From an uncultured Acidobacteriota bacterium (GTDB lineage Bacteria; Acidobacteriota; Vicinamibacteria; Vicinamibacterales; CAVVIG01): a DNA stretch of 64,000 nt. How positions within the stretch are numbered: position 1 is the first letter of the stretch; each line of letters begins with the position of its first letter. A program made the translations under genes and the position numbers. Location: contig CAWBXO010000001.1 in NCBI GenBank assembly GCA_963792785.1, positions 531,336 through 595,335 on the forward strand, read 5' to 3'. Positions 41,690 to 61,810 of this stretch are shown here, in pieces. The notes under the pieces were generated by a model, which saw only the letters and a list, made by a program, of their open reading frames with translations, was not told where the DNA came from and searched no databases.

Positions 41690-41734
41690 AGCGTATCAAG
41701 TCCGGTCTCATGCGTTGTGTTGCAGTATGTTGCG
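41690..41734 (-). promoter_or_regulatory. Candidate third copy of island regulator box plus -10
   Basis: CGCAAC-ATAC-TGCAAC-N23-TACGCT upstream of the redoxin gene. Confidence 0.45.
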
Positions 41735-41821
41735 GATTCGCGGTGCGGGGATCGCATCCTGGCGCGCGGCTGTGGGGTGTAGAATCGAGCCGAGCGAATG
41801 GCATTACACGTCAGACTGTTT

Positions 41822-42289
41822 ATGAAGCGCGCCCTGATGCTCGCGTTGTTTGTTGGGTTGCAGACCGTGGCGTCTCCAGCGCGGGCGGCGGAACCGCTGG
41901 TTGGACTCTGGCGCCTGCAGCTCCAGGAGATCAACGGCCAACAGGGCAACGCCGAGCCCATGGCTTTGCAGATTTCCCAAGCTGGGGACAAGTTGACGTT
42001 CGCATTTTCCGTGCCCATGCCCGACATCTACTTCGTGACCACCACGTATACGCTGCGCCTGGACGGTTCCAGCGCCAACATCGTGAACGGAAACGATCAG
42101 GTCATCGGAACCATCCAGATGACGCGCGGAATTGCCGGCCAGTACACCCTGACGATGAAGGGCCCAAACATGCCGGACGCCCAGGGGACGCTCACCGTCT
42201 CCGCTGACGGGAAGACCCTCACCAGCGAATCCACTGCCACCCGGTCAGGCCGCACCGTCCATTCCAAGCAAACCTTCACACGCGATTGA
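41822..42289 (+). CDS. Exported hypothetical protein (lipocalin-like beta barrel possible)
   Basis: Signal peptide ...ARA-AE; LVGLWRL and TVSADGKTLT patterns. Confidence 0.65.
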   Translation: MKRALMLALFVGLQTVASPARAAEPLVGLWRLQLQEINGQQGNAEPMALQISQAGDKLTFAFSVPMPDIYFVTTTYTLRLDGSSANIVNGNDQVIGTIQMTRGIAGQYTLTMKGPNMPDAQGTLTVSADGKTLTSESTATRSGRTVHSKQTFTRD

Positions 42290-43434: not shown

Positions 43435-43537
43435 CGATAGGGCCCATTCGTCCCGCACGTCGACACAATCCTGATCGAAAGTGAGTAGAGGTGAACGACG
43501 CACGTCGCGCGCCCCTACTCACGCTAGCCCGTCGACG

Positions 43538-43946
43538 CTACCAGGACAGATGCTTCGATACGGCCAGGCCCTTCGGGACGAACGACACTGATGCCGACCG
43601 TCCGTGCCGCGTACCAAGAAACAGCAACGCGCCACCTGCTGCGACCACCGCCGCCCCCCCACCGACAAGGTTGGGATTCGAGGTCTTGCTCACGTCAGCC
43701 GGCGTGACGTACCTTTCCATCCGACGTGTGCAGCAGTCCCCACAGCGTCATTCCCATGCCTACGGCGACCAGGCCCCCGCCCGACCACACCATGCCACTG
43801 TGGCTGGTCGTGCCCGCGGGCTGCTGCAACGCCTGCGCCTGCGCCTTCGCCACCCTCTCGACGCTCGCGCCAAAATCATCCGCGAACGCGGATCCCGCCA
43901 GCCCCAGGATGCAGGCGGCAGCCACTACGACTTGTGCCGGTTTCAT
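43538..43946 (-). CDS. Exported/membrane hypothetical protein, apparent +1 frameshift near 43712
   Basis: ORFs 43695-43946 and 43538-43720 join into signal peptide plus two Gly-rich hydrophobic segments ending in Trp if one G in AAGGTAC is removed. Confidence 0.55.
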
Positions 43947-43963
43947 GTGTCTCGTCCTCCCGG

Positions 43964-46729
43964 TCAGAATCGAATCTTGGCGCCGAGCATGGCGCGGCGT
44001 GGATAGGTGAACGACGAGGGCGCGCCGAATGCACTGGAGGTGCCGAGCATCGAAATGATGCCCTCCGCCGTGTCGGCGTTCGTGAGGTTCAGGATGTCCG
44101 CGAACAGATCGGCCTGCAATCCGGCGTTATTGAGCCTGAACGACTTCTGCAGACGCATGTCCACGAGATTGAGGCTGGCCACACGCCGGCTACCGTCCAG
44201 CGGCTCCACGTCGATCGTCGGAGAAGAGGCGAACCCGAGACCGGATACGCGGATCTGGCGGGCCCAGGGACGACCCGTCTGATGCTGAATGTTCGTCGAC
44301 ACCAGAATGCCGTACGGGAGCTGGTACAGGAACTGAACCTTCGCCACGACCGGACGATCCCCAATCAGCCGACCGTCGGTGTTGACCAAGTCGTTTGGGC
44401 CGTCTGGAAATCGGCCGAACGAGCGCGGTATCTCCTCCTGGCCAGACGTGGGCGAGCGGTTGCTCGACGGGAGTCGGCCAGTGGACTTCGACAGGACCAG
44501 CGAGAAGGTGCCCTGCCACCGGTTTGCCATCCGCTTGGTCAACACGAACGTCGCGCCCTGATAGCGAGTGTACAGGCCGGGCAAGTTCGTCATGGAGAAG
44601 ACGCTTTGGCTGACGGGCGTGAGCAACTTGTAGACCATGACCGTCGAGCCCGTCGCCTCCGCACCGGTTGAGTCGACGTAGGGCACTTGCGCGTCCTGCC
44701 CGGTCGTGTCGGCCCACCCGGGATAATCGTGCCCGCGCTTGTACACGTAGTTCACCTGGAGACCGAGATTCGGAATCAGTTGCTGTTCCAGCTGAACAAT
44801 GACTTGATCGTTATACGGGGCGCGGTAATTCGGGTCCACCTGGAGCTGCAGGCTGCTGCTCGTCGTCTGGAATTTGGATCGATTCCCGGCGGCGTCAACG
44901 TTGAACGTGGAGACCGGCGTCACGCCAGGCGCAACGGCGCTGAAATCCGAAAGCAGCGGGCCGCGATAGTCCCGCCCGTAGTGCGCCTTCACGACAGTAT
45001 TGCTGTCGCTGTCGACCTGCCAGTTCACGCCGACGCGCGGAGACACGGCCTTCCAATTGAACAGATGTCCGCTGTCCTGAGTGAACGCGCCGGTCTCATT
45101 CGAGTTGGCGTCGAGGACGGGCATGGCCTGGAACTTGCCGTAACTGTAGTCGTACCGGATACCCAGATTCAGCGTGACCCGGTCGAGGCGGTACGTATCG
45201 TCCACGTAGGTGCCCACCGAACCGATGAGGCCGGGCGAGTGGTATGGGAGTTGGGTGGTTCCGGTCGACTGCTGACCCGTCACACTGAAGATGTCGATGG
45301 TGTCGTTGTTGTACGTCACCGAGTCCTGGCCGCCATCGTTGTACTGCAGGCCGAACTTCAGGTCGTGGCTCCCGCCCCCGAAGTCATCGACGTACTTGCC
45401 AATCTTGACCGACGTGCCCCTGCGCCACGACTTCGATGAGTTGAACCCCGAGACGCCCCCCGTGACGACGCCCGTGTCGTTGTCGGTGACCTGCGGAGTG
45501 CCAGGCACCTGTCCCGGGATGAACGGAGAATTGGCGTTCTTGGCAAAGTCCCCGGAGTACCGGGCTTCCAGGAACATCGACGACGACATGGTGTACATGT
45601 ACACGAAATTCGGCGTTGGGTTGTCGCCGTGCCCAGACGAGAGCGTGCTCAACGCCACCAGCGGGTTGCTGGTGTTGGGGGGCAGCGCCCAGTAGTCGTC
45701 GTGCATGCCGTGCATGATCCGCTGCTTCGGCGTAATCTGGTAGGTCAGTTTATAGAACAGCCGCTTGGCAATGGATGGCGTCGCCGCGGAGGGCGCGAAT
45801 CCGGTCGATGCGAAGGTGTCATCCTGGTCCTGATACAATCCAAAGAACCAGAACTTGTCCCGGATCATCGGACCAGACAACTGCCACGTCGTGTCGGTAA
45901 ACTTCTTCCGGTAATACGGAAAACCGCCGTCTTGTGCGTCAGTCGTGTTGCGGCCCGTCAAGGCGTTGGGCTGGACGTACAGATTTCCGTCTCCGTGAAA
46001 CAGATTCCCCCCCTCGCGGGTGACGATGTTGAAGACGGCCCCCTCGACGTTTCCGTACTCCGCGGACGCCCCCAGTTGGAGGACCTCCACTTGTTCCACG
46101 GCATCCGTGTTGGGCCACGCCCATCCTCCACCGTTCCCAGGAGCAGAAATATCAGTGCCGTCGAGGAGATACGAGTTGGCATTCACGCTGCTGCCCATCG
46201 ACTGCGCGTTGGTCGTCCCTCCCGACGTGGACGTCGACTGGCTGACACCGGGCGCCGAGTTAATCAAGTCAAAAAAGGAGAACCGTCTGACGGGAGCGCT
46301 CTCCACCCACTGCTTGTCGTAGTTGGTACTCACCTGAGAACTCGACACACTGACTAAGGGCGTCGCGCCCGTGACAGTAATGTTTTCCTCAAGAGTGCTC
46401 ACACTCAGGGCGATCGGCAGGGTCACCGTCCCGCCGACCCCGACGGTGATGCCGGCACGAGTGACGGTGGAAAAGCCGCTCAGCGTTGCTTCCACGCTGT
46501 AGGTGCCAGGCGAAAGGTTGGGGAACCGGTAGTTTCCAGTGCCGGACGTGACGTCGACGGTTCCCGCGGAGGGAAGGGTCGCGCCATGGAGTGTCACTGT
46601 CACGCCGGGCAGCACGCCGCCAGACGAGTCGGCTACCGTCCCGACAATTTCGCCGGTGGTTCGCTGTGCATGCGCCGGGGACGCAACCAGCAGCGCCACC
46701 GCACAAATGGCCGCCACAAAGACCTTCAT
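43964..46729 (-). CDS. TonB-dependent receptor (Oar-like, carboxypeptidase-regulatory N-domain)
   Basis: GTVADSSGGVLPGVTVT, ASAEYG plug motif, TLNLGIRYD, SPRVG, C-terminal LGAKIRF. Confidence 0.92.
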   Translation of the reverse strand: MKVFVAAICAVALLVASPAHAQRTTGEIVGTVADSSGGVLPGVTVTLHGATLPSAGTVDVTSGTGNYRFPNLSPGTYSVEATLSGFSTVTRAGITVGVGGTVTLPIALSVSTLEENITVTGATPLVSVSSSQVSTNYDKQWVESAPVRRFSFFDLINSAPGVSQSTSTSGGTTNAQSMGSSVNANSYLLDGTDISAPGNGGGWAWPNTDAVEQVEVLQLGASAEYGNVEGAVFNIVTREGGNLFHGDGNLYVQPNALTGRNTTDAQDGGFPYYRKKFTDTTWQLSGPMIRDKFWFFGLYQDQDDTFASTGFAPSAATPSIAKRLFYKLTYQITPKQRIMHGMHDDYWALPPNTSNPLVALSTLSSGHGDNPTPNFVYMYTMSSSMFLEARYSGDFAKNANSPFIPGQVPGTPQVTDNDTGVVTGGVSGFNSSKSWRRGTSVKIGKYVDDFGGGSHDLKFGLQYNDGGQDSVTYNNDTIDIFSVTGQQSTGTTQLPYHSPGLIGSVGTYVDDTYRLDRVTLNLGIRYDYSYGKFQAMPVLDANSNETGAFTQDSGHLFNWKAVSPRVGVNWQVDSDSNTVVKAHYGRDYRGPLLSDFSAVAPGVTPVSTFNVDAAGNRSKFQTTSSSLQLQVDPNYRAPYNDQVIVQLEQQLIPNLGLQVNYVYKRGHDYPGWADTTGQDAQVPYVDSTGAEATGSTVMVYKLLTPVSQSVFSMTNLPGLYTRYQGATFVLTKRMANRWQGTFSLVLSKSTGRLPSSNRSPTSGQEEIPRSFGRFPDGPNDLVNTDGRLIGDRPVVAKVQFLYQLPYGILVSTNIQHQTGRPWARQIRVSGLGFASSPTIDVEPLDGSRRVASLNLVDMRLQKSFRLNNAGLQADLFADILNLTNADTAEGIISMLGTSSAFGAPSSFTYPRRAMLGAKIRF

Positions 46730-46825
46730 CGCTCAACACCCTCCCACCGAAAACACTCCGCAAACCAGAGGCGCCTGGTTCCGCGCCGGGTCGGCTCGAG
46801 GAGTTCCCAGTTAAGCCGCGCAGGA

Positions 46826-46871
46826 CTACCTTAGGGCAACAGCGGTTACGCAGACGTTGCAAGTTGTGGCA
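46826..46871 (-). promoter_or_regulatory. Regulator box plus -10 of TonB-dependent receptor
   Basis: TGCCAC-AACT-TGCAAC-N21-CTAAGGTAG; same blocks and spacing as at 56488-56533. Confidence 0.7.
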
Positions 46872-46956
46872 GGGAGGCGACAGAAATGGGCGCCGATCCA
46901 CCGCTCCGGCGCTTTGCGGGGTGGCCTAGGGAGAAAGCGACCGGAATCCGGAGTGT

Positions 46957-47652
46957 TCAGGACTCCGATTCGTTGAAGGTCAGGCAGTAGCCGTCGCCGT
47001 GAACAGTATGAATGAACTCAGGAACATGAGGATCTGGCTCGACCTTGGCGCGCAGCCGTTTGACCGCGTAGTCCACGGCCCGGGTGGTCGGCTCGTCGGG
47101 AAATCCCCAGACTTCGCGCAGCAGTTCGGAACGGTGCACGACCCGGCCCCTCCGCTCGGCCAGATAGGACAGCAAATCGAATTCCCGCCGCGTGAGGTGA
47201 ATCTTTCCGGAGCCACCGGTCGCCGTCAGGGCCCTGAAGTCGACAGTCACCCGACCGAGACGCAGCCTCTCGACCATGCTCCTGGCTCGGCGAAGAACCA
47301 CCAGGATGCGTGCCCTGAGTTCATCGAAGTCAAAGGGTTTCGTAATGTAGTCGTCGGCGCCGGCCTCGAGGCCCCGCAGCTTGTCGGCCTTCTCATTGCG
47401 CACGGTGAGCATGATGACCGGTGTGGAGCCTCCCCGACTGATGAGACGGCACAACTCAACACCGTCCCATCCCGGCAGCACCACATCGAGCAACACGAGG
47501 TCCGGCGCCGACGCGCGCACAGACTTGAGAGCGGACTGTCCGTCCCCGGCGCGTTCTATCTCGAAGCCGGCGAACGTCAGATTGTCGGCCAGCACCCGCG
47601 CCAGAGCGGCATCGTCCTCGACGACAAGAATCCGTTTCCTGTGCGCGGCCAC
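46957..47652 (-). CDS. OmpR/PhoB-family response regulator
   Basis: ILVVEDD, DLVLLDVVLP, GADDYITKPF, wHTH LTRREFDLL...TVHGDGY. Confidence 0.95.
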   Translation of the reverse strand: MAAHRKRILVVEDDAALARVLADNLTFAGFEIERAGDGQSALKSVRASAPDLVLLDVVLPGWDGVELCRLISRGGSTPVIMLTVRNEKADKLRGLEAGADDYITKPFDFDELRARILVVLRRARSMVERLRLGRVTVDFRALTATGGSGKIHLTRREFDLLSYLAERRGRVVHRSELLREVWGFPDEPTTRAVDYAVKRLRAKVEPDPHVPEFIHTVHGDGYCLTFNESES

Positions 47653-47697
47653 GGCGCTGCGATGCTACCACGCCCGGTGGCGGGAAAATCACAGGGT

Positions 47698-49215
47698 TCA
47701 CGGTCGAATTGACGAGCTGGATTCCTCGTCTCGGACCAGCACCTGATGCGCCATCAGCACGGAAAGCCCCGCCAGCAGTTCGCGTGGCGCGGCCTCGCCC
47801 ACGGCGTTCCGATAGGCATCTACGAGTCCCTGCAGATCCCGCACATGCGGCACCAACCGGATCAATTCCGGCAGGTTCACGCCTGCTGCGAATCGAATGG
47901 GAAAACCGATGCGGGGCACGACAATGGCCTCCCGCAAGAGCACCTCATGACCTTCAATCGACGGGACAGGCTCGAATCGGAGCCCCTCGCTCGGGCGCAG
48001 CCGCAAAGCGGGAGCGTCACGGAGATTCGCGAACGCCGTCCGGACCCTCCCGTCGCGAGCAAGCTGGCTGTCCGTGATCTCGTGACCGAAGCCTTCGGGC
48101 ACGTCGGGCCCTGCACTCGCGCGGCGGTCCCAGAACGCGTGCCCGTGTTCGACACTCGCAGCTTCGAAAAATCCGGCCGCCTGGCGGCGGCACGCCGCAT
48201 AGACGATCCGCTCCCGCTGATTGTAGAAATCGGTGGCCGCACCCGCCATCTCCGGCTTGCCGAGGGAGGTATGCGCGACAACGGCCGCTCGCCATGCCGA
48301 GAGCAGCGCCTTCCTGATACCGCCGGACGACAGGGGATCGATGAAGGATGCGGCGTCCCCGACGAGAAGAAGCCCTGAGTCCGCGGCGCGTTCCACGTCG
48401 TACGGTGATGCGTCGCACGCCCATGGGCGCGTGACCTGTCTCGCGCGCTTCAGATGCCGGGTCATGGCTGTCGCCTTCTCCAGGTGCCGCGCGTAGACGA
48501 ACCTCAAGTCCGTCTTCCCGTCGGCGCGACTGGGCTCAACCATCACCGTGCACTGACGGCGGCTGGCAGACAAGGGCACCGACCAGGCCCATCCGTCGCG
48601 GTAGCTCTCCACGAAGGTATGCGAGACCTCACTGGCCGGCCACTCTCCCTGGCCGTCCCACTCCGCCACGATGGCCAGCGTCCGGTATCCGCCCGTTTGA
48701 CGCCGGAAGCCGTTCCGAGCGGCGACGCCTGCGCGCCCGGAGCAGTCGAGCACGCATCGTGCCTGGTAGGTCGCTCGGTTGCCGGACCGGCGATGACACG
48801 CGACGTGAAACGGGCCGGAGCCGGTGACATTCTGGACCCGGCCGAGGACGAGGGAGGCGCCCGACCGTCGGGCAAAACGCCGCAGAACGCGGTCGAATGC
48901 CGGGCGGGGCACGTGGTAGCCGTGCGTGTCGGTCGTGGTCGTGGTCCGACGCCCAGCCCAGGCCGACACATTCCCGTCGTTCGGATGGAAGCCGGCCGCC
49001 TCTATCAGTTCACTCTGCCCAAGAAACTCGAACAGCTTCCGGGTCCCGGCCGGGAGCGACTCCGCGAGGCAAGGGCCCCGTGCCTCGTCGTGAAGAAGCG
49101 CGACGGACCAGTCCCAGGAAGCCAGGAGACCGGCGGCGGTTGCGCCGGCTGGACCTCCCCCAATCACCAGCACGTCGACCGTTCCCGGAGGCTCCGTCCC
49201 GCGTCGCGCTGTCAC
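47698..49215 (-). CDS. qhpG: FAD-dependent monooxygenase, QhpG-like (CTQ biogenesis)
   Basis: VIGGGPAG, DCSGR, GWAW, GDAASFIDPLSSGG; coupled to qhp operon. Confidence 0.8.
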   Translation of the reverse strand: MTARRGTEPPGTVDVLVIGGGPAGATAAGLLASWDWSVALLHDEARGPCLAESLPAGTRKLFEFLGQSELIEAAGFHPNDGNVSAWAGRRTTTTTDTHGYHVPRPAFDRVLRRFARRSGASLVLGRVQNVTGSGPFHVACHRRSGNRATYQARCVLDCSGRAGVAARNGFRRQTGGYRTLAIVAEWDGQGEWPASEVSHTFVESYRDGWAWSVPLSASRRQCTVMVEPSRADGKTDLRFVYARHLEKATAMTRHLKRARQVTRPWACDASPYDVERAADSGLLLVGDAASFIDPLSSGGIRKALLSAWRAAVVAHTSLGKPEMAGAATDFYNQRERIVYAACRRQAAGFFEAASVEHGHAFWDRRASAGPDVPEGFGHEITDSQLARDGRVRTAFANLRDAPALRLRPSEGLRFEPVPSIEGHEVLLREAIVVPRIGFPIRFAAGVNLPELIRLVPHVRDLQGLVDAYRNAVGEAAPRELLAGLSVLMAHQVLVRDEESSSSIRP

Positions 49216-49934
49216 GTTGTCGGACCCACCGGCGCAGGCAGTCCGTCTCGCATCACCGCAAGAATCTGTTCAATGCCGGCCCCGGGCGACGCTTCGAGCG
49301 CGCGCGCCACGAAGCCGGTAGCGTTGGCCACCGCAAAGCTGATCCCGCTCAGGTTGCGCTCGCGTGGCACATTCGGGATGTCTCTCGGGTACCCCGACGC
49401 GTGCACGACGACGCGTCCCGCGGCCTCGCCAATCCGATACGAATGGCGGTCGCACGTCCAATCGAGGCAGACCGGCACGACGCCGTCCAGGCTGCCCGGC
49501 AGCCACTGCACTCCCCCGTCCTCCATCGCCGCCACGAGCGTGACTCCGCGCGCGGAGGCCCGCCGGACGGCCTCCTGCAAGAACGGCCGATGCGCCGGGT
49601 TCGCCGTCCCGAGGCTCAGGTTGATGACTCGCGCGCCCAGGGCGCAGGCTTCGTCGAGGCCCTTGACCAGCGCGCCCACGTCGGTCACGAGTCTGCGCCA
49701 GAAGATCTTGACGACGAGAATCGTTGCGTCCGGGGCCTTCTCGCGGATCGCCGCCGTCACCGCCGTCCCGTGGCCGAGCGAATCGACGATGTCCGAATCA
49801 CGAAATCCGTCCTCCTTGATCGCCGTTCCATCGGCCACGCCGCCGACGTGCGGATGCGCGGCATGCACGCCGCTGTCGACGATGGCCACGCGAACGCCGC
49901 GTCCTGTGTACTGACTCAGATACATGCCTGCCAC
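49212..49934 (-). CDS. qhpE: Subtilisin-like S8 leader peptidase, QhpE-like
   Basis: VAIVDSG, GHGT, NLSLG, SGISFA triad; short, no signal peptide; inside qhp operon. Confidence 0.85.
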   Translation of the reverse strand: MAGMYLSQYTGRGVRVAIVDSGVHAAHPHVGGVADGTAIKEDGFRDSDIVDSLGHGTAVTAAIREKAPDATILVVKIFWRRLVTDVGALVKGLDEACALGARVINLSLGTANPAHRPFLQEAVRRASARGVTLVAAMEDGGVQWLPGSLDGVVPVCLDWTCDRHSYRIGEAAGRVVVHASGYPRDIPNVPRERNLSGISFAVANATGFVARALEASPGAGIEQILAVMRDGLPAPVGPTT

Positions 49935-49936
49935 AC

Positions 49937-51646
49937 TCAGGACGCGAACAGCGCGGCGAACGCCCCGCCGCGCGCGTGCAGATCCGAAGGGCGGCCCTGC
50001 TCGATGATGCTGCGCTCCGCCAGCACGACCACGCGATCGGCCGAGGACGCGAGCGCCAGGTGATGCGTAATCAGGATCGTCGTCCGGTCCCGCATGACCC
50101 GCGCGTAGCCGGCCAGCACCTGCTGCTCAGCGACCGGGTCCAGAGCCGCCGTCGGTTCGTCCAGCACCAGCACATCGGGGTTGAGCAGAAGCGCGCGCGC
50201 GACCGCCACTCGCTGCCGCTCTCCCGCCGACAGTGCCGCGCCGCGCTCGCCGACAATCGTGCGCAGGCCCTCCGGCAGCCGCGCAATCAGCTCGTCCACG
50301 CCGGCGCTGCTGGCCGCGTGCCGGACGTCCTCATCCGATGCGTCCGGTCGCGCATATCGAATATTCTCGGCGATGCTCACATGGAACAGCACAGGCTGCT
50401 GGTCCACCAGCACAACGTGGCGGCGCAGATCCTCGAGTGCCAGATCTCGAATGTCATGGCCGTCCAGGCGGATGCATCCCCCGTCGGGATCGATCAGTCT
50501 GACCAGGAGGTCGGCGATGGTCGACTTGCCGCTGCCGCTTGATCCGACCAGGGCCAGCGTCTCGCCAGGCAAGACGCGAAAGGAGACGTCCTCGAGAATC
50601 TGCCCTCGGCCCAGGTCCAGGCTCACGCCCTGGAACTCGATCGCTCCGTCAACGTGTTCCAGCCGGCGCGGTTCGACACGCTCGACGACGTCTGGAGGCA
50701 GGTCGAGAAGCTCGTGGACCCGGGCGAGCGACACCTGGACGGTGGCCAGACTCCCGTACAGCCCCATCAGGGCCTGGACGGGCTGGAAGAGCCTCATGTA
50801 GTACGCCATGAACGCCACGAACGTGCCGAGACTCATCGTCTCCGCGATGACGCGGTGTCCGCCATAGAGAAACGCCGCCGCGGTGCCGACCGCCAGGATC
50901 GTGCCTGGCGCGCCGCCAGACAGGTACGACCAGAGCTGCATCGACATCAGCGCCTCGACAAACGCATCGTTATAGCCGCGGAAGCGCTGACTTTCCCGCT
51001 CCTCCGCGTTCGACGTCACAACCAGTCGCATGCCCTGCAGGCTTTCGATGAGGAAACTGCCGGTGGCCGCGCTGGCCTCGCGAACCTTTCGAACGTGGGC
51101 AGCCAGCGTCGCACGGGTGCGCTCCAGCACCCAGACCGCGATCGGCACGACCGCGACGCCGATCAGCGCCAGGCGCAGGTCGAGCCAGCACATTGCGGCG
51201 AGGCTGCCGACGAGGAAGAAACAGTTGCCAACCCACGACAGGAGCGATTCCGCGGCCACGCGTTGGATCTCGCCGACGTCGTTATTGATCCGGGCGAGGA
51301 TGTCCCCAAGTGGCATGCGCGCGTAGAAACGCGGAGACAGGCGCTGCAGGTGTCGATACAGCGCCAGCCGCATGTCGAAGAGGACCTCGGCAGACACACG
51401 CGTATATCGCAGACCCGTCAAGGCGGTCAGCAGAAAGCCGGCGACGGAAGTGAGGGCGAAGAGGGTGACGATTCCGACGAGCCAGCGCTCGTCGTGACCG
51501 ACGAGCGCCCGATCGATGAGGAGCTTGGAGAAGTATGGAAGGGTCAGGGCCAGCGCCGTATTCAGCAGGCTCAGCCCGACGACGAGCGCGAGTCGCCGCC
51601 AATACGGAAGAACGTAGGCCAGCGCGCGCCGGAACTCCCTGGACAT
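49937..51646 (-). CDS. qhpF: ABC exporter (TM plus ATPase), QhpF-like
   Basis: GSSGSGKST, LSAGERQR, LDEPT; directly downstream of qhpC. Confidence 0.85.
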   Translation of the reverse strand: MSREFRRALAYVLPYWRRLALVVGLSLLNTALALTLPYFSKLLIDRALVGHDERWLVGIVTLFALTSVAGFLLTALTGLRYTRVSAEVLFDMRLALYRHLQRLSPRFYARMPLGDILARINNDVGEIQRVAAESLLSWVGNCFFLVGSLAAMCWLDLRLALIGVAVVPIAVWVLERTRATLAAHVRKVREASAATGSFLIESLQGMRLVVTSNAEERESQRFRGYNDAFVEALMSMQLWSYLSGGAPGTILAVGTAAAFLYGGHRVIAETMSLGTFVAFMAYYMRLFQPVQALMGLYGSLATVQVSLARVHELLDLPPDVVERVEPRRLEHVDGAIEFQGVSLDLGRGQILEDVSFRVLPGETLALVGSSGSGKSTIADLLVRLIDPDGGCIRLDGHDIRDLALEDLRRHVVLVDQQPVLFHVSIAENIRYARPDASDEDVRHAASSAGVDELIARLPEGLRTIVGERGAALSAGERQRVAVARALLLNPDVLVLDEPTAALDPVAEQQVLAGYARVMRDRTTILITHHLALASSADRVVVLAERSIIEQGRPSDLHARGGAFAALFAS

Positions 51647-51675
51647 GCAGACAGATCAGGCGCGCGACTGGCCCA

Positions 51676-52011
51676 TCACGGAAACACGAGGTCCAGCTTG
51701 CGCCAGTCCTTCTGCGCGGCCGCGCAGCTGCTCGTCCAGTTGGGAGCGTGATTGAGCTGGTCCGGCACCTGTGCGGGCCAGAAGCAACCAATGTGGCAGT
51801 CGAAGATGTCGCGCTCGACGGGCTGGCACAGGCCCGCGGTGCCGCCGCTTCGATCGGCTTCCCACCCTGGCGAGAACACCAGGGAACAGCCCAACGGGAT
51901 ATGCGGCGGTGCCGGCGCCTGCCCCTGCAAGGCCACCACGTCGCCATCGGGGCCGGCCACCTGCGTCTTGACCCTGTGCGCTTTCCGGTTAATCGCCTTC
52001 AGATGTGTCAC
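51676..52011 (-). CDS. qhpC: QHNDH gamma-subunit precursor (CTQ peptide)
   Basis: Leader HLKAINRKA...DVVAL; GC....PGWE, LCQPVERD, C...CFWPAQVPD, DWRKL.VFP. Confidence 0.93.
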   Translation of the reverse strand: MTHLKAINRKAHRVKTQVAGPDGDVVALQGQAPAPPHIPLGCSLVFSPGWEADRSGGTAGLCQPVERDIFDCHIGCFWPAQVPDQLNHAPNWTSSCAAAQKDWRKLDLVFP

Positions 52012-53456
52012 AGGACTGCCTCCGCCCTGGCTTCGTCTCGATCAAATCGAGCCAGGAAACTAGGATTTCGTTCTGACAGCTCACCATATACCTGCAGGCA
52101 CGTGTCGGTCCAGCCACGAATCCAATCGCAGTAATGCAGGTTCGGCCGTTCGGTCGAGCCGTACCGCACGTAGGCCTCATGGTAGCACCCGCCCGAGCAC
52201 AGGGGCCGGGCCCAGCAGACGCTGCAGTCGGTCTTGTCGGCAATCTGGTGCGTCTCGAGAAATGCGGCCTGGGTCTCGCGGTCAATCCCGTCGCGCACCG
52301 TGCCGAACTTGTGCGTATCCGAGCCGGCGAACCGGTGGCACAGGGCCACGTCCCCCTCGGTCGACACGCCGAGCAGTCCGAGTCCGGCTCCGCAGGGATA
52401 CGCCTTGCTGACCCCCTTGTGAATCTCTTCCAGGGTGTCCTTGATATTCGAGAACCCGTGATGCTGGTTGCGGACCGCCGCCTCCTGGAAGTCACGCGCG
52501 AGGGCGCGAAACTGTTCCAGCATCCGATCGAATCCTCGCTCGCCAATGGCGTACTGCAGCGTTGGGGACGTCGTCACCGGGGCAAACCCGACTTCCCAGA
52601 ATCCGATTTCATCGGTGAGATGCTGGTAGATGCGCGAGACGTCGAGGGTGTCCGACGTGAGGGTGACCCGAGCGCCGATGGGCCGGCTCCGATGGCGACG
52701 AAGCAACTCCTTGATCTTGGGCAGCACGACATCGTAGCTGCCCTCGCCGTTGTGGAAGACGCGGAACTTGTCCTGCATCTCGCGCGGGCCGTCGATCGAA
52801 ATCGTGACGCCCACCTCGTTCTCGGCGAGGAATTCGATGATCTCCGGACGAAGGAGCGTCGCGTTGGTGGTCAGGCTGAAATCGATTAGCTTGCCGCACT
52901 CGGCCGCACGCCGGCGCCCGTACGCGATGGTCTTCTCGAGCACGGGAAAGTTCAGCAGCGTCTCACCGCCGAAGAACGTCAGGTGCGCGATCTGACCGCT
53001 TTCCCTCAACAGGAATTCAACACTTTCACGCGCCGTCTCCTCGCTCATGAACTTGGCCTGCTTGCCGTGCGCCGTGTCCACGATCTTGTCTTCGCCGTAC
53101 TCATAGCAGTACGTGCACGCGAGGTTGCACTGATTGGTGACGTTCAAGACCATCGTGCTCAGCGGGAACGACGTCACCGGCAGCATACGCGGCGCCACGG
53201 GCTCCGGTTGGTGCTCATAGCCTACAGCGCGAACATCGAGCAGATCGGCCAGCGCCCCCTTGATCACCTCGGGCGGGAACCGGTCCGCGAGGGCGGCCAC
53301 CAACTCGGTCTCGGATCGCGGGGCTTCGACGACCGCCTCCAGCGTCGCCGCCGAGGGATCATCCAGCGCGAAAATCGCCGCGCTCGGCACCAGGTAGACG
53401 AAGCTCCGGCCCCCAGCCTGAAAGTGATGGAACTCCCTCGGCACCAGCGCGATCAT
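52008..53456 (-). CDS. qhpD: Radical SAM/SPASM thioether-forming maturase
   Basis: N-terminal PqqD/RRE-like domain; CNLACTYC; FFGGETLL; SPASM CGAG...C...CSVCWARPLCSGGC. Confidence 0.93.
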   Translation of the reverse strand: MIALVPREFHHFQAGGRSFVYLVPSAAIFALDDPSAATLEAVVEAPRSETELVAALADRFPPEVIKGALADLLDVRAVGYEHQPEPVAPRMLPVTSFPLSTMVLNVTNQCNLACTYCYEYGEDKIVDTAHGKQAKFMSEETARESVEFLLRESGQIAHLTFFGGETLLNFPVLEKTIAYGRRRAAECGKLIDFSLTTNATLLRPEIIEFLAENEVGVTISIDGPREMQDKFRVFHNGEGSYDVVLPKIKELLRRHRSRPIGARVTLTSDTLDVSRIYQHLTDEIGFWEVGFAPVTTSPTLQYAIGERGFDRMLEQFRALARDFQEAAVRNQHHGFSNIKDTLEEIHKGVSKAYPCGAGLGLLGVSTEGDVALCHRFAGSDTHKFGTVRDGIDRETQAAFLETHQIADKTDCSVCWARPLCSGGCYHEAYVRYGSTERPNLHYCDWIRGWTDTCLQVYGELSERNPSFLARFDRDEARAEAVL

Positions 53457-55264
53457 CGGCCCGTCTCCTCGGGGAGCCACCGGATGTACAGAGGCGGACT
53501 CACCAACAGATGAGCACGGGCTTTGAGCGGCGGCGCGGCCGGCGTCCCCCCGCCCGGGTTCTGAAGATACGTCGCCACCGCCCACACATCGCCGATATTG
53601 TCGGTCCCATTTCGACGCTTCGGGTTCGGTCCCTCGATGTTCGGCGTGAACAGGCCTGTGACTTCATCGATGGCACCGACGAAGTCCTTGTCGTCGTCGT
53701 GGTACGTCGCGGTGTACTCTTCGATGCTCCATGTCACGTCGACAGGGCCGAGCTCGATGTCGTCGGCCGTACCAGGCTGCTTGTCGGGCCCGTTCGCATA
53801 CGCGTGCGCCTCGAACTGCTGGAACTGCTTCGGGACGGTGACGCCGCCCACGCGAGCGAGGCCGGACTCCGGTAGCACTTTGATGAAATCGACCGTCGAG
53901 TACACCGCGATGGTGGCCTCGCCGGTCGCGCCCGCCAACAGAACCGTGCGGCGACCTGGTGCGGCATCCGTAGCCACCGAAATCGACACGACCACCTGAT
54001 CAGCCGTCGTGCTCGTCACCCTATCGACGGTCACGCCTGGACCGAGGCTCAGATCGGCCGGAGCCACGCTCGCGGGCAAGTTGGCACCGAACAGGTGCAG
54101 TTCCTGGCCGGAACTGCCAGCCTGGACCATCGGCTGGGCCACGCCAAGCACGACGGGATCGGACCCGAGGCGTTGAAGGTCGACGTCCACACCGAACTCG
54201 TCCTGCGCGCCCGCGAACCATCGGCCGCTCGCATGCCGCCAATCCTTGTCGATGAACAGCACCTCTCGCCAGTCGCTCGGAGCGTCGGACGCCGGCGTCG
54301 ACAGCTGCGTCGCCGGTGTTGCTCCGGGGTCGGAAGACCGCCCTCGCCACTGGAACCCGGTGTACACAATCGCGCGCCCCTGCCGCGTGACCGCCCGGCC
54401 GGTCCGCGCATAGGTGAGAGTCGTCTCGGTGGTGAACTCGGCGCTGGCGGCGTCACCGGACGGCCGGATGGTCACCACACCGAACACAGGCCCCTTGCCC
54501 GCCTGATCGCCCTTGAACGCCCATCGACCTTCGAGTCGAGGCGGGCGCATCGTGGCGGACCAGGCGTCCCAGGCCGGCGTCCTCAGCGGAAAGGCCTTGG
54601 ACAGTTCGTCGATCGCCTTGTCCATCGGCTGTCGAGTGTCCCGGGGCGCCGCGTCGTCACCCTGCCCGCCGGAACCCCTCCCCCCGCCCAGGAACACCTG
54701 CGAATCCGCCAAGGGGTAGTAACCCCGGTGCATCGCGACCAGGAGGCCCCATTCGTCCTTCGTTCGGCGCTGCGAAATGACCCGGCCCATCGAATGACAG
54801 GCACTGCACGTCTGCTCGGTGGCCTTGTCGCTGTAGTGGTATTCAATCATCCGGTGCTCGACTTCGAAGTCCGCCGGCTTCGCCTCCTCGGGCGCCAAGC
54901 CTTGATGATCTGCCAGATACCGCACGACAGCCCGCGCCTCCTCTGGCTCGATGTTCAGCCCGTTCAGGCTGATCATGCGCTTCACCGTCTCTTCCCAGCC
55001 CTCAGGCGTCATCCGGACCGTGGAGATTCGACTCAGTCGCCCCTGATCGTCAGGTCGATGGCAGGTGCCGCATTTCCGCGTGACGGTACTGTCCGCGATT
55101 GGAAACCCCTCATCTTCGGGCTTCGTGTCCGCTTTCACAGCGGCCTGCCCCCCCGCGGCGGATCCGCGCTGGGCCGACGCCGGGGCCGACGCGAGCAAGA
55201 TAGCGAGGCCGAGCGCCCATCCCAGGCGCTCCACGTGTTGCAGGCGATGGTGTCTCAGGAGCAC
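53453..55264 (-). CDS. qhpA: QHNDH alpha subunit (diheme c)
   Basis: Signal peptide; CGTCH and CSACH; RMTPEGWE, GFQWRG, LARVGG, GPNPKR; start uncertain. Confidence 0.92.
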   Translation of the reverse strand: MLLRHHRLQHVERLGWALGLAILLASAPASAQRGSAAGGQAAVKADTKPEDEGFPIADSTVTRKCGTCHRPDDQGRLSRISTVRMTPEGWEETVKRMISLNGLNIEPEEARAVVRYLADHQGLAPEEAKPADFEVEHRMIEYHYSDKATEQTCSACHSMGRVISQRRTKDEWGLLVAMHRGYYPLADSQVFLGGGRGSGGQGDDAAPRDTRQPMDKAIDELSKAFPLRTPAWDAWSATMRPPRLEGRWAFKGDQAGKGPVFGVVTIRPSGDAASAEFTTETTLTYARTGRAVTRQGRAIVYTGFQWRGRSSDPGATPATQLSTPASDAPSDWREVLFIDKDWRHASGRWFAGAQDEFGVDVDLQRLGSDPVVLGVAQPMVQAGSSGQELHLFGANLPASVAPADLSLGPGVTVDRVTSTTADQVVVSISVATDAAPGRRTVLLAGATGEATIAVYSTVDFIKVLPESGLARVGGVTVPKQFQQFEAHAYANGPDKQPGTADDIELGPVDVTWSIEEYTATYHDDDKDFVGAIDEVTGLFTPNIEGPNPKRRNGTDNIGDVWAVATYLQNPGGGTPAAPPLKARAHLLVSPPLYIRWLPEETGR

Positions 55265-55286
55265 GGTCAGATCCTATTCGCGATTA

Positions 55287-56441
55287 CTAACGCGGGGCGC
55301 CGGCCCCGCGCGCAGCTCGAGCGGGCACGACATGAAACGAGCTGTAGGGCATATCCGTGTCCATGGTGATCGTGCGGAGATACTTGAAATCCGAAGTGTC
55401 GTACAGATCGATCGTGCGGCCCGCCTCGTAGATGTAGAGCACCTGGCCGCTGGTGCTGACCTGGATGGCCATCCGAGGCCGGCCGTCGAAGGAAATTTTC
55501 TTCTCCACTTTCCCACCGTCGATATCCACCAGCCACATCTGATAGTCGTCGATCGCCTGCGCGAGGATGTAGCCTCGCTTGTGGTCTGGCGACACCGCGA
55601 AGCTCAGGCGAAGATCGTCTGGCGCCGGGCCAATCGGCACAAAGTCGACCGAACGCTTCGTGAGGTCAATTCGTCCCACGCCCACGATTCGCCTGTTCGC
55701 AACGGGATCCTGGACCGTGAACAGGGCCGTGAAGTAGGCCGGATCCTCGTACGCATCCTCCTGCGACCCGAGACTCCCCGAGCCCATGCCTGGCTCGATC
55801 GGGAGAGACATGTCCCAGTGATCGACCTGCGTCAGCGTCGAGGCGTCGAGAATGAGGATGTCCCGGCCGAACACGTACAGCAGTTTGCCATCCGGCGAGA
55901 ACCGCAGGTTGAATCTGGTGGTGCCCGGTCCGTCCGGCGGGGGAACCGTCTTGACGACCTGATGCGTCGTCAGATCGTACAGCACGAGTTGTGTCGGCTC
56001 GATTTCAAAGCGATCGATCAGCTTCTTAACCGGCTGAATCCCCACCGCCATGAAATGCTGTTGGGGGTCGACTGCGTACCCTCGAACGCGAACCTTCGCG
56101 CCCGGCTCGCTGAGCGCGAAGGTGTCGACGCTCTGTTTCTTTTCAACGTCGACCACCTCGAAGTGCTCCATGTCCCAATTGAGCGCGTACAGCCGGGTCG
56201 CGTCGCTCGACACCTGGACCTGATAGGGAACGCCTGTCGTCAGGTGAATCGACGCGACCTTCTCCGTCGCTTCGTCGATGGCCAGAATGTCGCCGGTGTA
56301 CGCGCCGACATACAATGTCCCGTCGCCGAGGACGACCTTCGGCGGCGCTCCGGCACCCGTAACCATCCAGGCGACCAGCAAGAGGCCACTAGCGCGGACA
56401 GTCTTCATGAGCCACGTCGCACGACGCGTCGCTACATCCAC
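55287..56441 (-). CDS. qhpB: QHNDH beta subunit-like beta-propeller
   Basis: Signal peptide; YVTN-like blades (FSPDGKLLYV, VSPDHKRGY, STSGQVLYI); first gene of operon; start GTG 56441 or ATG 56408. Confidence 0.75.
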   Translation of the reverse strand: MDVATRRATWLMKTVRASGLLLVAWMVTGAGAPPKVVLGDGTLYVGAYTGDILAIDEATEKVASIHLTTGVPYQVQVSSDATRLYALNWDMEHFEVVDVEKKQSVDTFALSEPGAKVRVRGYAVDPQQHFMAVGIQPVKKLIDRFEIEPTQLVLYDLTTHQVVKTVPPPDGPGTTRFNLRFSPDGKLLYVFGRDILILDASTLTQVDHWDMSLPIEPGMGSGSLGSQEDAYEDPAYFTALFTVQDPVANRRIVGVGRIDLTKRSVDFVPIGPAPDDLRLSFAVSPDHKRGYILAQAIDDYQMWLVDIDGGKVEKKISFDGRPRMAIQVSTSGQVLYIYEAGRTIDLYDTSDFKYLRTITMDTDMPYSSFHVVPARAARGAGAPR

Positions 56442-56487
56442 CGCTTCCCCTCTTTCGTTCAGGCTCAGGGCGCCCATGTAATCTCGT

Positions 56488-56533
56488 CTACCTTAGACGA
56501 CTGCGCATCCCTTCGAAGTTGCAAATTGTGGCA
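56488..56533 (-). promoter_or_regulatory. Regulator box plus -10 of qhp operon
   Basis: TGCCAC-AATT-TGCAAC-N21-CTAAGGTAG. Confidence 0.7.
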
Positions 56534-56634
56534 TATCGCCGCGGCCCTCTTCTTGTTGGCCTACCATCAGGCGGGACGTCATTTTCCGCTTCCGCGCGCT
56601 CGAGAGAGACTGACCTGGGACATACTGACACACT

Positions 56635-57661
56635 GTGGAGACCACGACACGCAACGGTCTGCGTACACCCCGTCCCTCGGACATCGACACGCCGACATCC
56701 CTGTCGGTTCGGCTCTGGACGGTCGTCGTGGCGGCAGCGTTGGGGCTTGGCGCCGGCTGCACCACGCCCCAGCCGACACCGCCGACGACCCTGACCATTG
56801 GGACCGGGTGGGAAGACGGGGTGTGGGGTATCGTGGGCCAGGCGCTCGCGGATCAGGTACCGCCGCCATCTTCCAAACACCGCCGTCTCCAGCCGGCCCC
56901 TCTCGGACCTCGAGTTCAAAGTCGACGCCCTGGAGCGCGGCGACCTGGATTTGGCGTTGGTCGATTCCGAAACGGCTTATCGGGCGTACGAGACGGGCAC
57001 GGACGCCAACCCGTCGCCGCACACGAAGCTCCGCGCCATTTCGGTGCTCTTCCCCACGGTCGTGCAGATTGTCGTCCGGCGCGACGCCGAGATCACCTCG
57101 ATCGCGCAACTCCGCGGAAAGCATCTGGACGTCGGGCCCAAAGGCGGCTACGCCGACGAGGCCGCCCGACTCATTCTCGACAGCTACGGGCTGAGTTACT
57201 CCAGCGTCCATGTTTCGTTCGATGCGACGCCTCGCCCCGAGCAAGCGCTCCGCGACCACGAACTCGACGCGGTCGCGTTCTGGATGCCCCTGCACCATCC
57301 ATCGATCACTCGCGTCGTGAACGCGCTCCCGACCGATGTGCTCCCTCTGGATCGGGAGCACATCGGCATCCTTCAAAGCCACAGTCATTTCTTGAAGTCC
57401 ACGATCATTCAGGCCGGCACGTACCCCAATCAGACAAGCGACGTGCTGACCGTCGGTGAGGATGTGTTGCTCCTTTGCCGGCAGGGCCTGCCGGAAGCCC
57501 TCGTTCGCACGCTGACCCAGATCCTCTTCGACGCGGCGCCAGAACTGCAGCGCGCGCACCCGGCGGCCGCGAGCCTCGACGTGAGCAGCGGGCCCACGGC
57601 CTCCATCCCTCTGCATCCTGGCGCAGCTCGCTATTACCGCGAGCGGGAGCTGTTGAAGTGA
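56635..57661 (+). CDS. TAXI-family solute-binding lipoprotein, apparent +1 frameshift near 56857
   Basis: Lipobox LGAGC; LTIGTG..DGVW; KLRAI..LFP..VQIVVR; I.AGTYPNQ; IPLHPGAARYYRE. Confidence 0.82.
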
Positions 57662-57698
57662 CCTCGGCTCCCCGCCCCGGCGCCGACTTCCGCGTGCA

Positions 57699-59396
57699 AT
57701 GAAGCGGCTTCTTTTCCGCTGGACGAAGGGTGGGCCGGCGCTGATCCTGGCCAGCGGCACGGCGTTGGTGACGCTGTTCACGTTCGGCCTGGGATTCTGG
57801 GCGACACGACAGTGGAGGGACAGTACCGCCCAGGCCGCACAGACCCGCGGCGAAGAGGCCGTCGCCCTCCTCGCAGAGGCTCTGCAGCGGGACATGAAGG
57901 GCGGACAGACATCGGTGCTCCTGCCGATCAACCGTCCCCTTCTCGAGGAGGCTACGCTGTATGATCTGGCCGACGAGTTCGCGAGGGGCTTCGCCAGGTT
58001 CCCCTACCTCGAGTCGTTCTTTGTCTGGAGACGCTCGGAGGACTCCGCTTCCACTTACTTCTTCAGCCGCGCTGATCGGATGCCACCCTGGGACAGCGGG
58101 GAGACGATTGGCGACCCGTACCCTGTCGTCATTCGGCGGAATCCTGCGCCCATGCTGCCGGTCCTGACGCAAGTACATCAGGAAACGGCGCACTACACTC
58201 CTTTCGCCGCATCCAGCTTTTCTTCCTCTGGCTCCAGCTACCAGGTGTTCGTCCAACGCTTCTATGACGGGCGTCCGCCAGACAGCCAGATGACCGCGCT
58301 CATCGGCTTTACCGTGAACCTCGCTTGGGTCCGACAACACTATTTCGGCGACTTCATCGAGCAGATGCACGGGATCATCGGCGACCGCACGATTGGGATT
58401 CGTATCGTTGATCAGGATGGCTCGATCATCGCGGCCTCCGGCCCCCCGATCACTGTCGCCCCCATCCATACCCGCCGCTTTCCGCTCGCCTTCATCGATC
58501 GCGCCCTCATTCCAGGCCCAGACGCGCCTGCGGTGCCACAATGGGCCGTGCAGGTGGACGTCACGAACCAGGTGGCGCTGTCCGCCGCTGGCATCGGCAC
58601 GTTCTGGACGCTGACCCTGCTGGGTATCGCCGCCCTCATGACCTTCTCCGGCCTCGCCCTCACCGTGCGGTCGACGAACGCTGCCGCCGACCTCGCAGCC
58701 TCGCACGCCGAGTTCGTCTCGACAGTGACCCATGAGATGAAGACCCCGCTCTCTCTCATTCGTCTTGCCAGCAAGACGCTGGCGACGGGACGCTACGAGT
58801 CCGCGGAGGCAACCATCGCAGATTATGGCCGACTCCTGACCACCGAAGCCGGTCGACTGACGCGACTCATCGACAACGTGCTGTGCTTTGCCAGATTCAC
58901 CAACGCGGCCTCCCCGTACCACTTCGAGCGCGTGGACGTCTCGGAACTCATCCAGGAGTGCGTCGGTCGCTTCAAGCCTGAGCTCGATCTCGCCGGCTTC
59001 GAAATCACGACGAATCTGCCGGTGGAGAGCCTCGAGATTCGCGCCGACCGGGTGCTCATGCTCCAGGTCTTTGACAACCTTATTGACAACGCGGCCACAC
59101 ACGCCGCGCCGGGCCGCGTGCTGACTCTCACGGTCACACACCGAGACGCAGCCATCCACATCACCTTTTGTGACGCCGGCCCGGGGATTGCGCCAACAGA
59201 CCTGCCCCATGTCTTTGACAAGTTCTACCGCGGGGGCAATGCGCGGCACCGTGGCAGCGGCCTTGGCCTGGCGATCGTGCTGCGCATCGTGACGGATCAC
59301 GGCGGGCGTGTCACCGTCCAGAGCGTGGAAGGCCGAGGCGCGACGTTCGAAGTAGTGCTGCCGGAGTGGAACGACACGTTACTGGATGATGCCTGA
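57699..59396 (+). CDS. Membrane sensor histidine kinase
   Basis: Two TMs around ~270-aa periplasmic domain; VTHEMKTPL H-box; NLIDNA, DAGPGI, FDKFYRG, GSGLGL. Confidence 0.95.
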   Translation: MKRLLFRWTKGGPALILASGTALVTLFTFGLGFWATRQWRDSTAQAAQTRGEEAVALLAEALQRDMKGGQTSVLLPINRPLLEEATLYDLADEFARGFARFPYLESFFVWRRSEDSASTYFFSRADRMPPWDSGETIGDPYPVVIRRNPAPMLPVLTQVHQETAHYTPFAASSFSSSGSSYQVFVQRFYDGRPPDSQMTALIGFTVNLAWVRQHYFGDFIEQMHGIIGDRTIGIRIVDQDGSIIAASGPPITVAPIHTRRFPLAFIDRALIPGPDAPAVPQWAVQVDVTNQVALSAAGIGTFWTLTLLGIAALMTFSGLALTVRSTNAAADLAASHAEFVSTVTHEMKTPLSLIRLASKTLATGRYESAEATIADYGRLLTTEAGRLTRLIDNVLCFARFTNAASPYHFERVDVSELIQECVGRFKPELDLAGFEITTNLPVESLEIRADRVLMLQVFDNLIDNAATHAAPGRVLTLTVTHRDAAIHITFCDAGPGIAPTDLPHVFDKFYRGGNARHRGSGLGLAIVLRIVTDHGGRVTVQSVEGRGATFEVVLPEWNDTLLDDA

Positions 59397-59442
59397 CCGA
59401 CCCGCGTGCGCCGCGATCCGAGTCAGGACGGAGGAATCGACC

Positions 59443-60348
59443 ATGACTGCCAGGCTCAGACAGACTTGCGTTTGCGTGGCCGCGACCGTTGCGTGCGGCT
59501 CCGTCATCCTCCACGCCCAGCAGGACCGCTCCCTCGCCGGCAGCATTCGCATCGCCAACCACTACCGCGTCGCGGCCGATGTGACGTACCTGACCGTCGG
59601 CGGCGTCGCAGACACACTCGATGTGTATCAGTCGCGAGACGCGCGGACGCCGCGCCCGACGCTAATCTTTATTCACGGCGGCAACTGGGTCGGCGGGAGC
59701 AAGACGGCCAGCTCCCTCATGATCCTGCCCTTCCTCGACATGGGCTGGAATGTCGTCAACATCGATTACCGGCTGCTGCGCACCGCACCGGCGCCGGCCG
59801 GAGCGGACGACTGCTTCTGCGCGCTGCGCTGGGTCTACCAGCACGCGAGGGACTACAACATCGACACGTCGCGGCTCGTCGTGAGCGGGAACTCGGCCGG
59901 TGGACAGCTCGCGCTGCTTCTCGCCATGGCGCCGCCCACGGCCGGCTTCGGCGCCGACTGTCCTGGCCCGGAGGCGCTCTCCGTGTCCGGCGTCATCAAT
60001 TGGTACGGTTTCTCGGATCTCGTGGATCTCCTCGAGGGCCCCGACGCCCGCCCCGCCGTCCAAGCGTGGATCGGAGACGGGCCGAACCGCGCACAACTGG
60101 CCCGCCGTCTATCGCCAGCAACCTACGTCAGAAAGGACAACCCGCCGATTCTGACGATTCAGGGAGACGCGGACCCAACTTCCCCGTACCCGTACTCGGT
60201 TCACCTGCACGAAGAACTGCGCAAGGCAGGCGTGCCCAACCAACTGCTGACGATCCCGGGCGGGAAGCACGGCGGCTTTACCGACGAGGAGACCGACACG
60301 ATCTACCTGACAATCCAGCAGTTTCTGAGCGCACACAATCTGCGGTGA
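59443..60348 (+). CDS. Exported alpha/beta hydrolase (HSL/BD-FAE-like)
   Basis: GGAGG SD; signal peptide; HGG, GNSAGG nucleophile elbow, GDAD, GKHG. Confidence 0.88.
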   Translation: MTARLRQTCVCVAATVACGSVILHAQQDRSLAGSIRIANHYRVAADVTYLTVGGVADTLDVYQSRDARTPRPTLIFIHGGNWVGGSKTASSLMILPFLDMGWNVVNIDYRLLRTAPAPAGADDCFCALRWVYQHARDYNIDTSRLVVSGNSAGGQLALLLAMAPPTAGFGADCPGPEALSVSGVINWYGFSDLVDLLEGPDARPAVQAWIGDGPNRAQLARRLSPATYVRKDNPPILTIQGDADPTSPYPYSVHLHEELRKAGVPNQLLTIPGGKHGGFTDEETDTIYLTIQQFLSAHNLR

Positions 60349-61561: not shown

Positions 61562-61810
61562 CCACAGAGGCACGGAGACACGGAGACCGGAACGTGGATC
61601 GCCGGACGCGGGTTCGACGCGGCCGGCCCGCGAAGCGGGCCCGGCGTACAAACGAACGAGGCCCGTTGATGCAAGCCCGGAGTTCGTGTGGCTTGCATCA
61701 ACGGGCCTCGTTCGTTTTGTACGGCCGCCTTTGGCGGCCCGCGTCGGTCACGACTCAGCGCGACGCTCGTCTTCGTGCGTCTTCGTGTCCTTCGGGCCTT
61801 CGTGGTTGCC
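61562..61810. repeat. Structured intergenic element with 33-bp inverted repeat and flanking 9-mer repeats
   Basis: CGTACAAACGAACGAGGCCCGTTGATGCAAGCC (61645-61677) vs its complement at 61690-61723 (one extra T); side hairpins; CACGGAGA and CTTCGTG repeats. Confidence 0.75.

Follow-up and report, generated by a model that had tools for sequence, protein, structure and literature searches.

A shared box and -10 architecture predicts a common OmpR/PhoB-type regulon for an amine dehydrogenase operon and a TonB-dependent receptor gene in Vicinamibacterales

The 64,000-nucleotide stretch analysed here (the window; contig CAWBXO010000001.1 of an uncultured Acidobacteriota bacterium of the order Vicinamibacterales) carries on its minus strand a qhp operon, encoding a quinohemoprotein amine dehydrogenase (QHNDH) and ending with the gene of an OmpR/PhoB-family response regulator, and downstream of it the gene of a TonB-dependent receptor. 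Are operon and receptor gene controlled together, and is the regulator encoded between them the one that does it? Two intergenic sites point to an answer. We propose, with a probability of about 0.8, that both are activator-dependent promoters and that their boxes are the docking sites of the regulator encoded at 46957-47652.

On the minus strand, 46871..46826 and 56533..56488 share a 16-nt block (with one C/T difference), followed by 21 unrelated bases and then by CTAAGGTAG. The core of the upstream block is 15 nt long and consists of GCCAC, AA plus three variable bases, and GCAAC, that is, two 5-nt half-sites with a 10-bp period; at both sites TAAGGT, which fits TAnnnT, begins 22 nt past this core. 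The elements of the two predicted promoters are:

46856..46870, minus strand: box 1, 15-nt core, placed before the TonB-dependent receptor gene and 86 nt past the end of the regulator gene
46828..46833, minus strand: predicted -10 element TAAGGT of the receptor promoter, 22 nt after box 1, with a putative start near 46821
56518..56532, minus strand: box 2, 15-nt core, differing from box 1 at one variable base, upstream of the qhp operon
56490..56495, minus strand: predicted -10 element TAAGGT of the qhp promoter, 22 nt after box 2, with a putative start near 56483

The first-pass annotation of this DNA had described the two-site pattern with its equal spacing and unrelated spacers, as well as the 10-bp direct repeat and the fit of TAAGGT to TAnnnT, and all of this was borne out. 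It had also laid the upstream block over the -35 position, which holds in part: with TAAGGT taken as the -10 hexamer (-12..-7), the core would span about -49..-35, near the -35 position but abutting its upstream edge rather than lying squarely over it. With up to 3 mismatches, the 46-nt pattern had two matches in the window, and 100 dinucleotide-preserving shuffles gave none. Looked for across the host genome (4,538,355 bases, 69% G+C), as the first-pass annotation had proposed, the 46-nt motif occurred only twice in 4.54 Mb and is therefore not common. The 16-mer by itself gave 2 matches at 0-1 mismatch, 3 at 2 mismatches and 14 at 3 mismatches, and the downstream block was absent after all 12 extra matches in the genome; a looser composite pattern recovered the same 2 places and no others. 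This uniqueness is that of mismatch scans, and weak extra sites in the host genome may remain. A consensus scan detected no sigma-70 -35/-10 promoter in either intergenic region; the bases at the would-be -35 hexamer are unlike TTGACA, and neither region has a usable -35. In an Rfam scan of 40000-61000 nothing matched at either promoter site, the sole match being a tRNA.

The boxes were then compared across 401 genomes of the order Vicinamibacterales, in which the host genome is G000 and G001 belongs to the same genus; related genomes such as these are not independent samples. Among 40 relatives, the full 46-nt pattern (up to 3 mismatches) was found in G020 and in G001, where two sites again lie 9.7 kb from each other. 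A composite of box, 21-23 nt and TAnnnT gave 15 clustered matches in 7 of the 401 genomes, against 4 scattered single matches for a reversed-pattern control. The 16-mer alone, at up to 1 mismatch, was not enriched (22 of 401 genomes matched); its control was at least as frequent, so that the many isolated one-mismatch matches are put down to chance, and only sites that also have the -10 were counted as real. Over all loci compared there were 40 distinct core matches (up to 1 mismatch), and half of them, 20, had TAnnnT 22-24 nt on (22 nt at 15 sites, 23 nt at 4 and 24 nt at 1), where the chance rate at random positions of the host genome is 0.37%. The other 20 were mostly isolated singletons, plus one G020 site. 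This search of orthologous loci, also suggested by the first-pass annotation, thus yielded 20 distinct sites in 10 genomes (G000, G001, G020, G059, G357, G257, G193, G015, G312 and the metagenome-assembled contig L096), with 8 sites on three contigs in G020 and 2 in G312. Throughout the 20 sites the half-sites are invariant, except for the middle base of the second (A or C). In the alignment with G001, conservation runs from the box through the -10 and slightly past it, and the DNA upstream of each box has diverged; G001 reads TAACGT at the -10 position of the qhp promoter. The 9-nt identity of the downstream block is confined to the host genus, and other genomes keep TAnnnT alone.

That identity around the -10, specific to the host genus, is what one would expect if the two copies in the window stemmed from a recent duplication of a promoter module, or simply from chance, with no common regulator. 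However, the 21-nt spacers are unrelated, the shuffles contained no match, and 20 distinct sites with unrelated spacers recur in 10 genomes, which makes duplication or chance very unlikely as a reading of these sequences. The sites do resemble those of OmpR/PhoB-type regulators: two half-sites form a direct repeat with the usual 10-11 bp between them, and the repeat lies next to the -35 position of a promoter that has no good -35, at a fixed distance to the -10, the starts from which these positions are reckoned being predictions. The box might still be an operator through which the regulator, or another factor, represses both promoters, with transcription proceeding from unrecognised elements. 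The sign of regulation is not readable from sequence alone, and the box lies so near the core promoter that it could hinder polymerase. Yet it sits upstream of the -35 position, clear of the -10 and the start, and no usable -35 exists in either region; moreover, the gap of 22-24 nt between box and TAnnnT, fixed at 20 sites, is predicted by contact with polymerase on one face of the helix and is unneeded by a repressor. We hold repression to be improbable and favour activation.

What links the boxes to this particular regulator is their position. In 9 genomes, namely at 8 of the 30 best regulator loci and at L096, a box follows 25-104 nt after the end of an orthologous regulator gene (64-84% identical) on the same strand; in G020 the nearest box is ~1.9 kb downstream of the regulator gene, and one unannotated 578-aa gene intervenes. 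In the 401-genome sample the regulator family spans 53-84% identity and occurs in 74 genomes at E <= 1e-70, and its seven best non-self matches (65-84% identity, E <= 4.3e-98) each stand beside a box and lie in exactly the seven other sampled box-carrying genomes. A separate search for related loci gave seven close ones in Vicinamibacterales/Acidobacteriota (L095-L101, 59-84% identity), and beyond these distant paralogues only, at 43% identity or less. A gene for a TAXI-family solute-binding protein also accompanies the boxes in G000, G001, G020, G059, G257, G015 and G312, and it is present at the regulator locus of G010. Beside it, a histidine kinase was confirmed (HisKA + HATPase_c) in the first five of these genomes; the adjacent open reading frames (ORFs) of 560 aa in G015 and 557 aa in G010 were taken as kinases by position, and the ORF that follows the TAXI-protein gene in G312, a fragment at the end of the stretch with no Pfam match, is presumably one too. 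The regulator is the only DNA-binding protein common to all annotated box loci. In a maximum-likelihood tree of 30 regulators, the 9 associated with this box (box A) make up one side of a branch with 100/98 support.

The sister regulators have a box of their own. At 11 of the 30 loci, a variant whose half-sites both have a central G (box B) lies just downstream of the regulator gene and is followed by TAnnnT 21-23 nt later; a twelfth regulator locus carries the variant box without a clear -10. These loci (L076-L094) come from other Vicinamibacterales genomes and imply a family-wide layout of regulator gene, box and target operon. At 15 alignment columns the residues of box-A regulators are never those of box-B regulators. 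Three of them, 192, 195 and 198 (A/Y/K-R-S against S-L/H-N/A), align to the segment RTVDV(T/H)IRRLR of WalR and VicR, which we take to be the DNA-recognition helix of the family, and this match between helix residues and box type is no more than suggestive. The host genome itself encodes a paralogous regulator, 56% identical (contig C1, 1145755-1146423). The box-B pattern is G+C-rich and has many chance matches there; the sole match near the paralogue lies on the other strand and lacks a -10.

The letters of the upstream block also call to mind a -35-type element of an alternative sigma factor, either extracytoplasmic function-like or a degenerate sigma-54 -24/-12 element. The sigma-54 consensus is TGGCAC-N5-TTGC, which the block resembles, and TTGCAA in the proximal half matches TTGACA at 4/6 positions. 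As a sigma-54 promoter the site was nonetheless rejected: the two blocks are only 3 nt apart instead of 5, and GC replaces GG, against the GG-N10-GC rule. Moreover, the conserved TAnnnT is of sigma-70 type and, at 22-24 nt, too distant for the block to be its -35; no sigma factor gene was found among the ORFs annotated at box loci; and box type tracks the regulator clade. An alternative sigma factor is thus quite improbable, and even pooled, the three alternatives retain a small share of the probability. The proposal of the first-pass annotation that the regulator binds these boxes therefore gains comparative support, from linkage in 10 genomes, from the tree and from box type, and regulator binding is the reading followed below.

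The regulator fits this role in its architecture, since it combines a receiver with a winged-helix Trans_reg_C domain, as OmpR/PhoB-type regulators do. It falls below every NCBIfam equivalog cut-off, the top one being MtrA (216 bits vs 300), and its closest solved relatives are MtrA, RpaA and RegX3. PhoB was tried and rejected, together with a pho box and PhoB regulon: the regulator scores 184.7 bits vs 296.2 for TIGR02154 and 138.9 vs 471 for NF007546, and the box is unrelated to the pho box consensus.

Several observations weigh against this reading. The regulator locus of G010 has no box within 18 kb (up to 2 mismatches), and the whole G010 genome has no 16-mer match at up to 1 mismatch, although its regulator falls inside the box-A group and has the box-A helix residues. 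A second regulator of G357 (65% identical, contig C13) has no box nearby either, and at one G020 box site CAGAAT stands where TAnnnT is expected. With respect to recognition, 12 of the separating columns lie outside the helix, and box type switches just once on the regulator tree, so that the match of helix and box is a single evolutionary event and not repeated covariation. Both the -10 assignment and the transcription starts are predicted, and the evidence for pairing kinase and regulator is gene linkage. Finally, the box ends 22 nt from the -10, a gap that exceeds that of the classical pho box and leaves the mode of polymerase contact uncertain.

In the window, the genes on the minus strand are ordered box 2, qhpB-like, qhpA, qhpD, qhpC, exporter, subtilase, qhpG, regulator, box 1 and receptor, with the qhp set (qhpB-A-D-C-F-E-G) at 47698-56477; the domain search agreed with the earlier gene calls for regulator, receptor and qhp set. 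Going from the qhp promoter downstream, and then along the divergent genes, the features are:

55287..56477, minus strand: qhpB-like beta-propeller subunit, first gene after box 2 (TIGR03907 69.5 bits, below the cut-off of 223.2)
53453..55264, minus strand: qhpA, dihaem alpha subunit of QHNDH (PF09098, PF14930, PF09099, PF09100)
52008..53585, minus strand: qhpD, radical SAM maturase (domain search)
51676..52011, minus strand: qhpC, gamma subunit of QHNDH (PF08992, 1.4e-32)
49937..51646, minus strand: qhpF-like ABC exporter (domain search)
49212..49934, minus strand: qhpE-like subtilisin-type protease (domain search)
47698..49215, minus strand: qhpG, flavin monooxygenase (NF049967 233.5 bits, cut-off 240)
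46957..47652, minus strand: OmpR/PhoB-family response regulator, last gene of the qhp operon (Response_reg, PF00072, 1.4e-29; Trans_reg_C, PF00486, 7.3e-26)
43964..46729, minus strand: TonB-dependent receptor (CarboxypepD_reg N-terminal domain, Plug and barrel), first gene after box 1
56798..57661, plus strand: TAXI-family solute-binding protein, divergent from the qhp promoter (PF16868 5.9e-47; TIGR02122 162 bits)
57699..59396, plus strand: sensor histidine kinase (HisKA + HATPase_c), presumed partner of the regulator
59386..60348, plus strand: BD-FAE/alpha-beta hydrolase esterase, after the kinase gene, with a homologue behind a box in G020

The cluster is recognisable as one for QHNDH by qhpA, C, D, E, F and G, with the qhpB-like gene weak and qhpG just under its cut-off. 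As the kinase is divergently encoded on the plus strand, its gene is not beside that of the regulator but across the qhp promoter. The true start of the TAXI-protein gene may lie further upstream than 56798. For the qhpB-like ORF, the ATG at 56475-56477 is not conserved in G001; the GTG at 56439-56441, 36 nt downstream, is conserved and comes with a purine-rich ribosome-binding site in G001. Translation therefore likely starts at the GTG at 56441, which makes a leader of about 40 nt likely, and the N-terminus would then carry an RR pair ahead of a hydrophobic segment. For the receptor gene, the 5' leader as predicted contains two overlapping terminator-like hairpins (46756-46787, minus strand; 0.4 expected in shuffles), which could be a leader attenuator; this stretch is poorly conserved in G001.

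Which genes would such a regulator control? The first-pass annotation had joined receptor and QHNDH in one regulon, and the comparison sides with it, as G001 and G020 also place both behind boxes. Genes of the qhp set follow boxes in G000, G001, G020 and G357, and TonB-dependent receptor genes do so in G000, G001, G020 (two), G257, G193, G015 and G312; in G059 the receptor gene stands second behind the box. Over its full length the window receptor shares 54% identity with the G020 receptor encoded just upstream of the qhp genes there, behind its own box, so that the pairing of receptor and QHNDH is kept in two genera; with two other box-controlled receptors the window receptor shares only 27%. 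Further genes behind boxes encode N,N-dimethylformamidase-like proteins (G020, G059, G312) and, in G020, amidohydrolases, a redoxin and a BD-FAE esterase, and a gamma-glutamyltranspeptidase gene follows the receptor gene behind the box in G257, G193 and G015. Judged from these annotations, the common theme of the targets would be amine/amide breakdown outside the cytoplasm. Box-controlled operons also encode proteins of 578-753 aa with no Pfam match, which we list as unannotated predicted members of the regulon (2285-4375 in L038 of G020, 7839-9575 in L040, and 5585-7846 and 403-2478 in L176 of G312). The boxless G010 operon (L175, 9187-14421) encodes a TAXI protein (PF16868), a kinase-sized ORF, the regulator and a flavin amine oxidase (PF01593), a further tie between the box-A regulator group and amines. 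In the window, a redoxin gene at 40610-41674 adjoins a plus-strand tRNA gene (40505-40575; RF00005, 64.5 bits), and its homologue in G020 sits behind two boxes. Third-codon-position G+C is 0.76-0.84 in the qhp, receptor and two-component genes (40610-60348) and 0.91-0.95 in flanking genes (38051-40479, 60437-62581), and regulators of genome families f1, f2 and f5 occur together in the box-A group; low third-position G+C and mixed families together suggest that the cassette moves horizontally.

We infer binding and activation from the arrangement of these sites and genes, and on that footing the following mechanism can be proposed. A periplasmic signal, probably an amine or amide, would lead the divergently encoded kinase (57699-59396), probably together with the TAXI protein (56798-57661), to phosphorylate the regulator; the role of the TAXI protein as a co-sensor appears likely from gene order. 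The phosphorylated regulator would bind the two half-sites as a head-to-tail (tandem) dimer at about -49..-35 and, in the manner of a class-II promoter, would recruit polymerase where only a -10 exists. Bound in this way, it would turn on both the QHNDH operon and the TonB-dependent receptor gene. Because the regulator gene is the last of the qhp operon, it would be switched on along with the rest, and the regulator would amplify its own expression in a positive feedback.

That an OmpR-type activator box can replace a -35 is a textbook principle, and the sites described here share with those of the OmpR/PhoB family (the PhoB pho box, OmpR, PhoP, the HLR1 of RpaA/RpaB, GlnR/AfsQ1) tandem direct repeats about one helical turn apart and a -10 without a -35, read by a receiver plus winged-helix regulator. 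Half-sites of the GlnR and AfsQ1 boxes have the form GnnAC, which the half-sites of the present box fit; the GlnR-type box has a period of 11 bp, here 10 bp, and the pho box ends about 10 nt from the -10, here 22 nt. Unlike the named OmpR/PhoB regulators, this one passes no equivalog cut-off, and its box sequence and target genes differ. The qhp operon of Paracoccus denitrificans is said to use an AraC-type regulator, QhpR. There too the qhp cluster ends with a dedicated regulator gene, and amines are the presumed inducers, as here; in contrast, the window has a two-component OmpR-type regulator with a TAXI protein and a kinase, and a TonB-dependent receptor is predicted as a target as well. 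In the literature collection searched, the matches listed for qhpR were unrelated. Titles and abstract openings retrieved for quinohemoprotein amine dehydrogenase with response regulator described no such regulation, nor did those listed for Vicinamibacter with TonB-dependent describe such a regulon. Solute-binding proteins that stimulate sensor kinases are the subject of a review (PMC8050422); the present locus is like those systems in having the gene of a periplasmic binding protein directly upstream of that of a histidine kinase, and differs in that its TAXI co-sensor is proposed from gene order alone.

Altogether, the regulon is a well supported prediction, of OmpR/PhoB type in principle and under a regulator that is no equivalog of any named one. 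To our knowledge, almost nothing is known about promoters and regulons of Acidobacteriota, a phylum that is abundant in soil and mostly uncultured; this analysis offers a regulator and a box that can be tested together, along with about 20 promoters predicted as targets in 10 genomes. The box-A and box-B regulators, related proteins with a one-base difference in each half-site of their boxes, should also be useful for studies of DNA recognition by winged-helix proteins. More speculatively, and we advance this as a tentative idea that we think doubtful as a whole, the cassette of TAXI protein, kinase and regulator with its box may be a mobile regulon for scavenging organic nitrogen (amines and amides) in Vicinamibacterales, in which TonB-dependent receptors would import amines/amides to periplasmic enzymes (QHNDH, dimethylformamidase-like proteins, amidohydrolases, gamma-glutamyltranspeptidase), and the pair of box A and box B may be a natural change of the recognition helix that retargeted one base of the half-site. 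If so, amines and amides would join the substrates of TonB-dependent receptors as a new class, with uptake dedicated to them. Already at its present strength, the predicted regulon links a TonB-dependent receptor with amine oxidation in the periplasm and suggests a route by which these bacteria may take up and use organic nitrogen.

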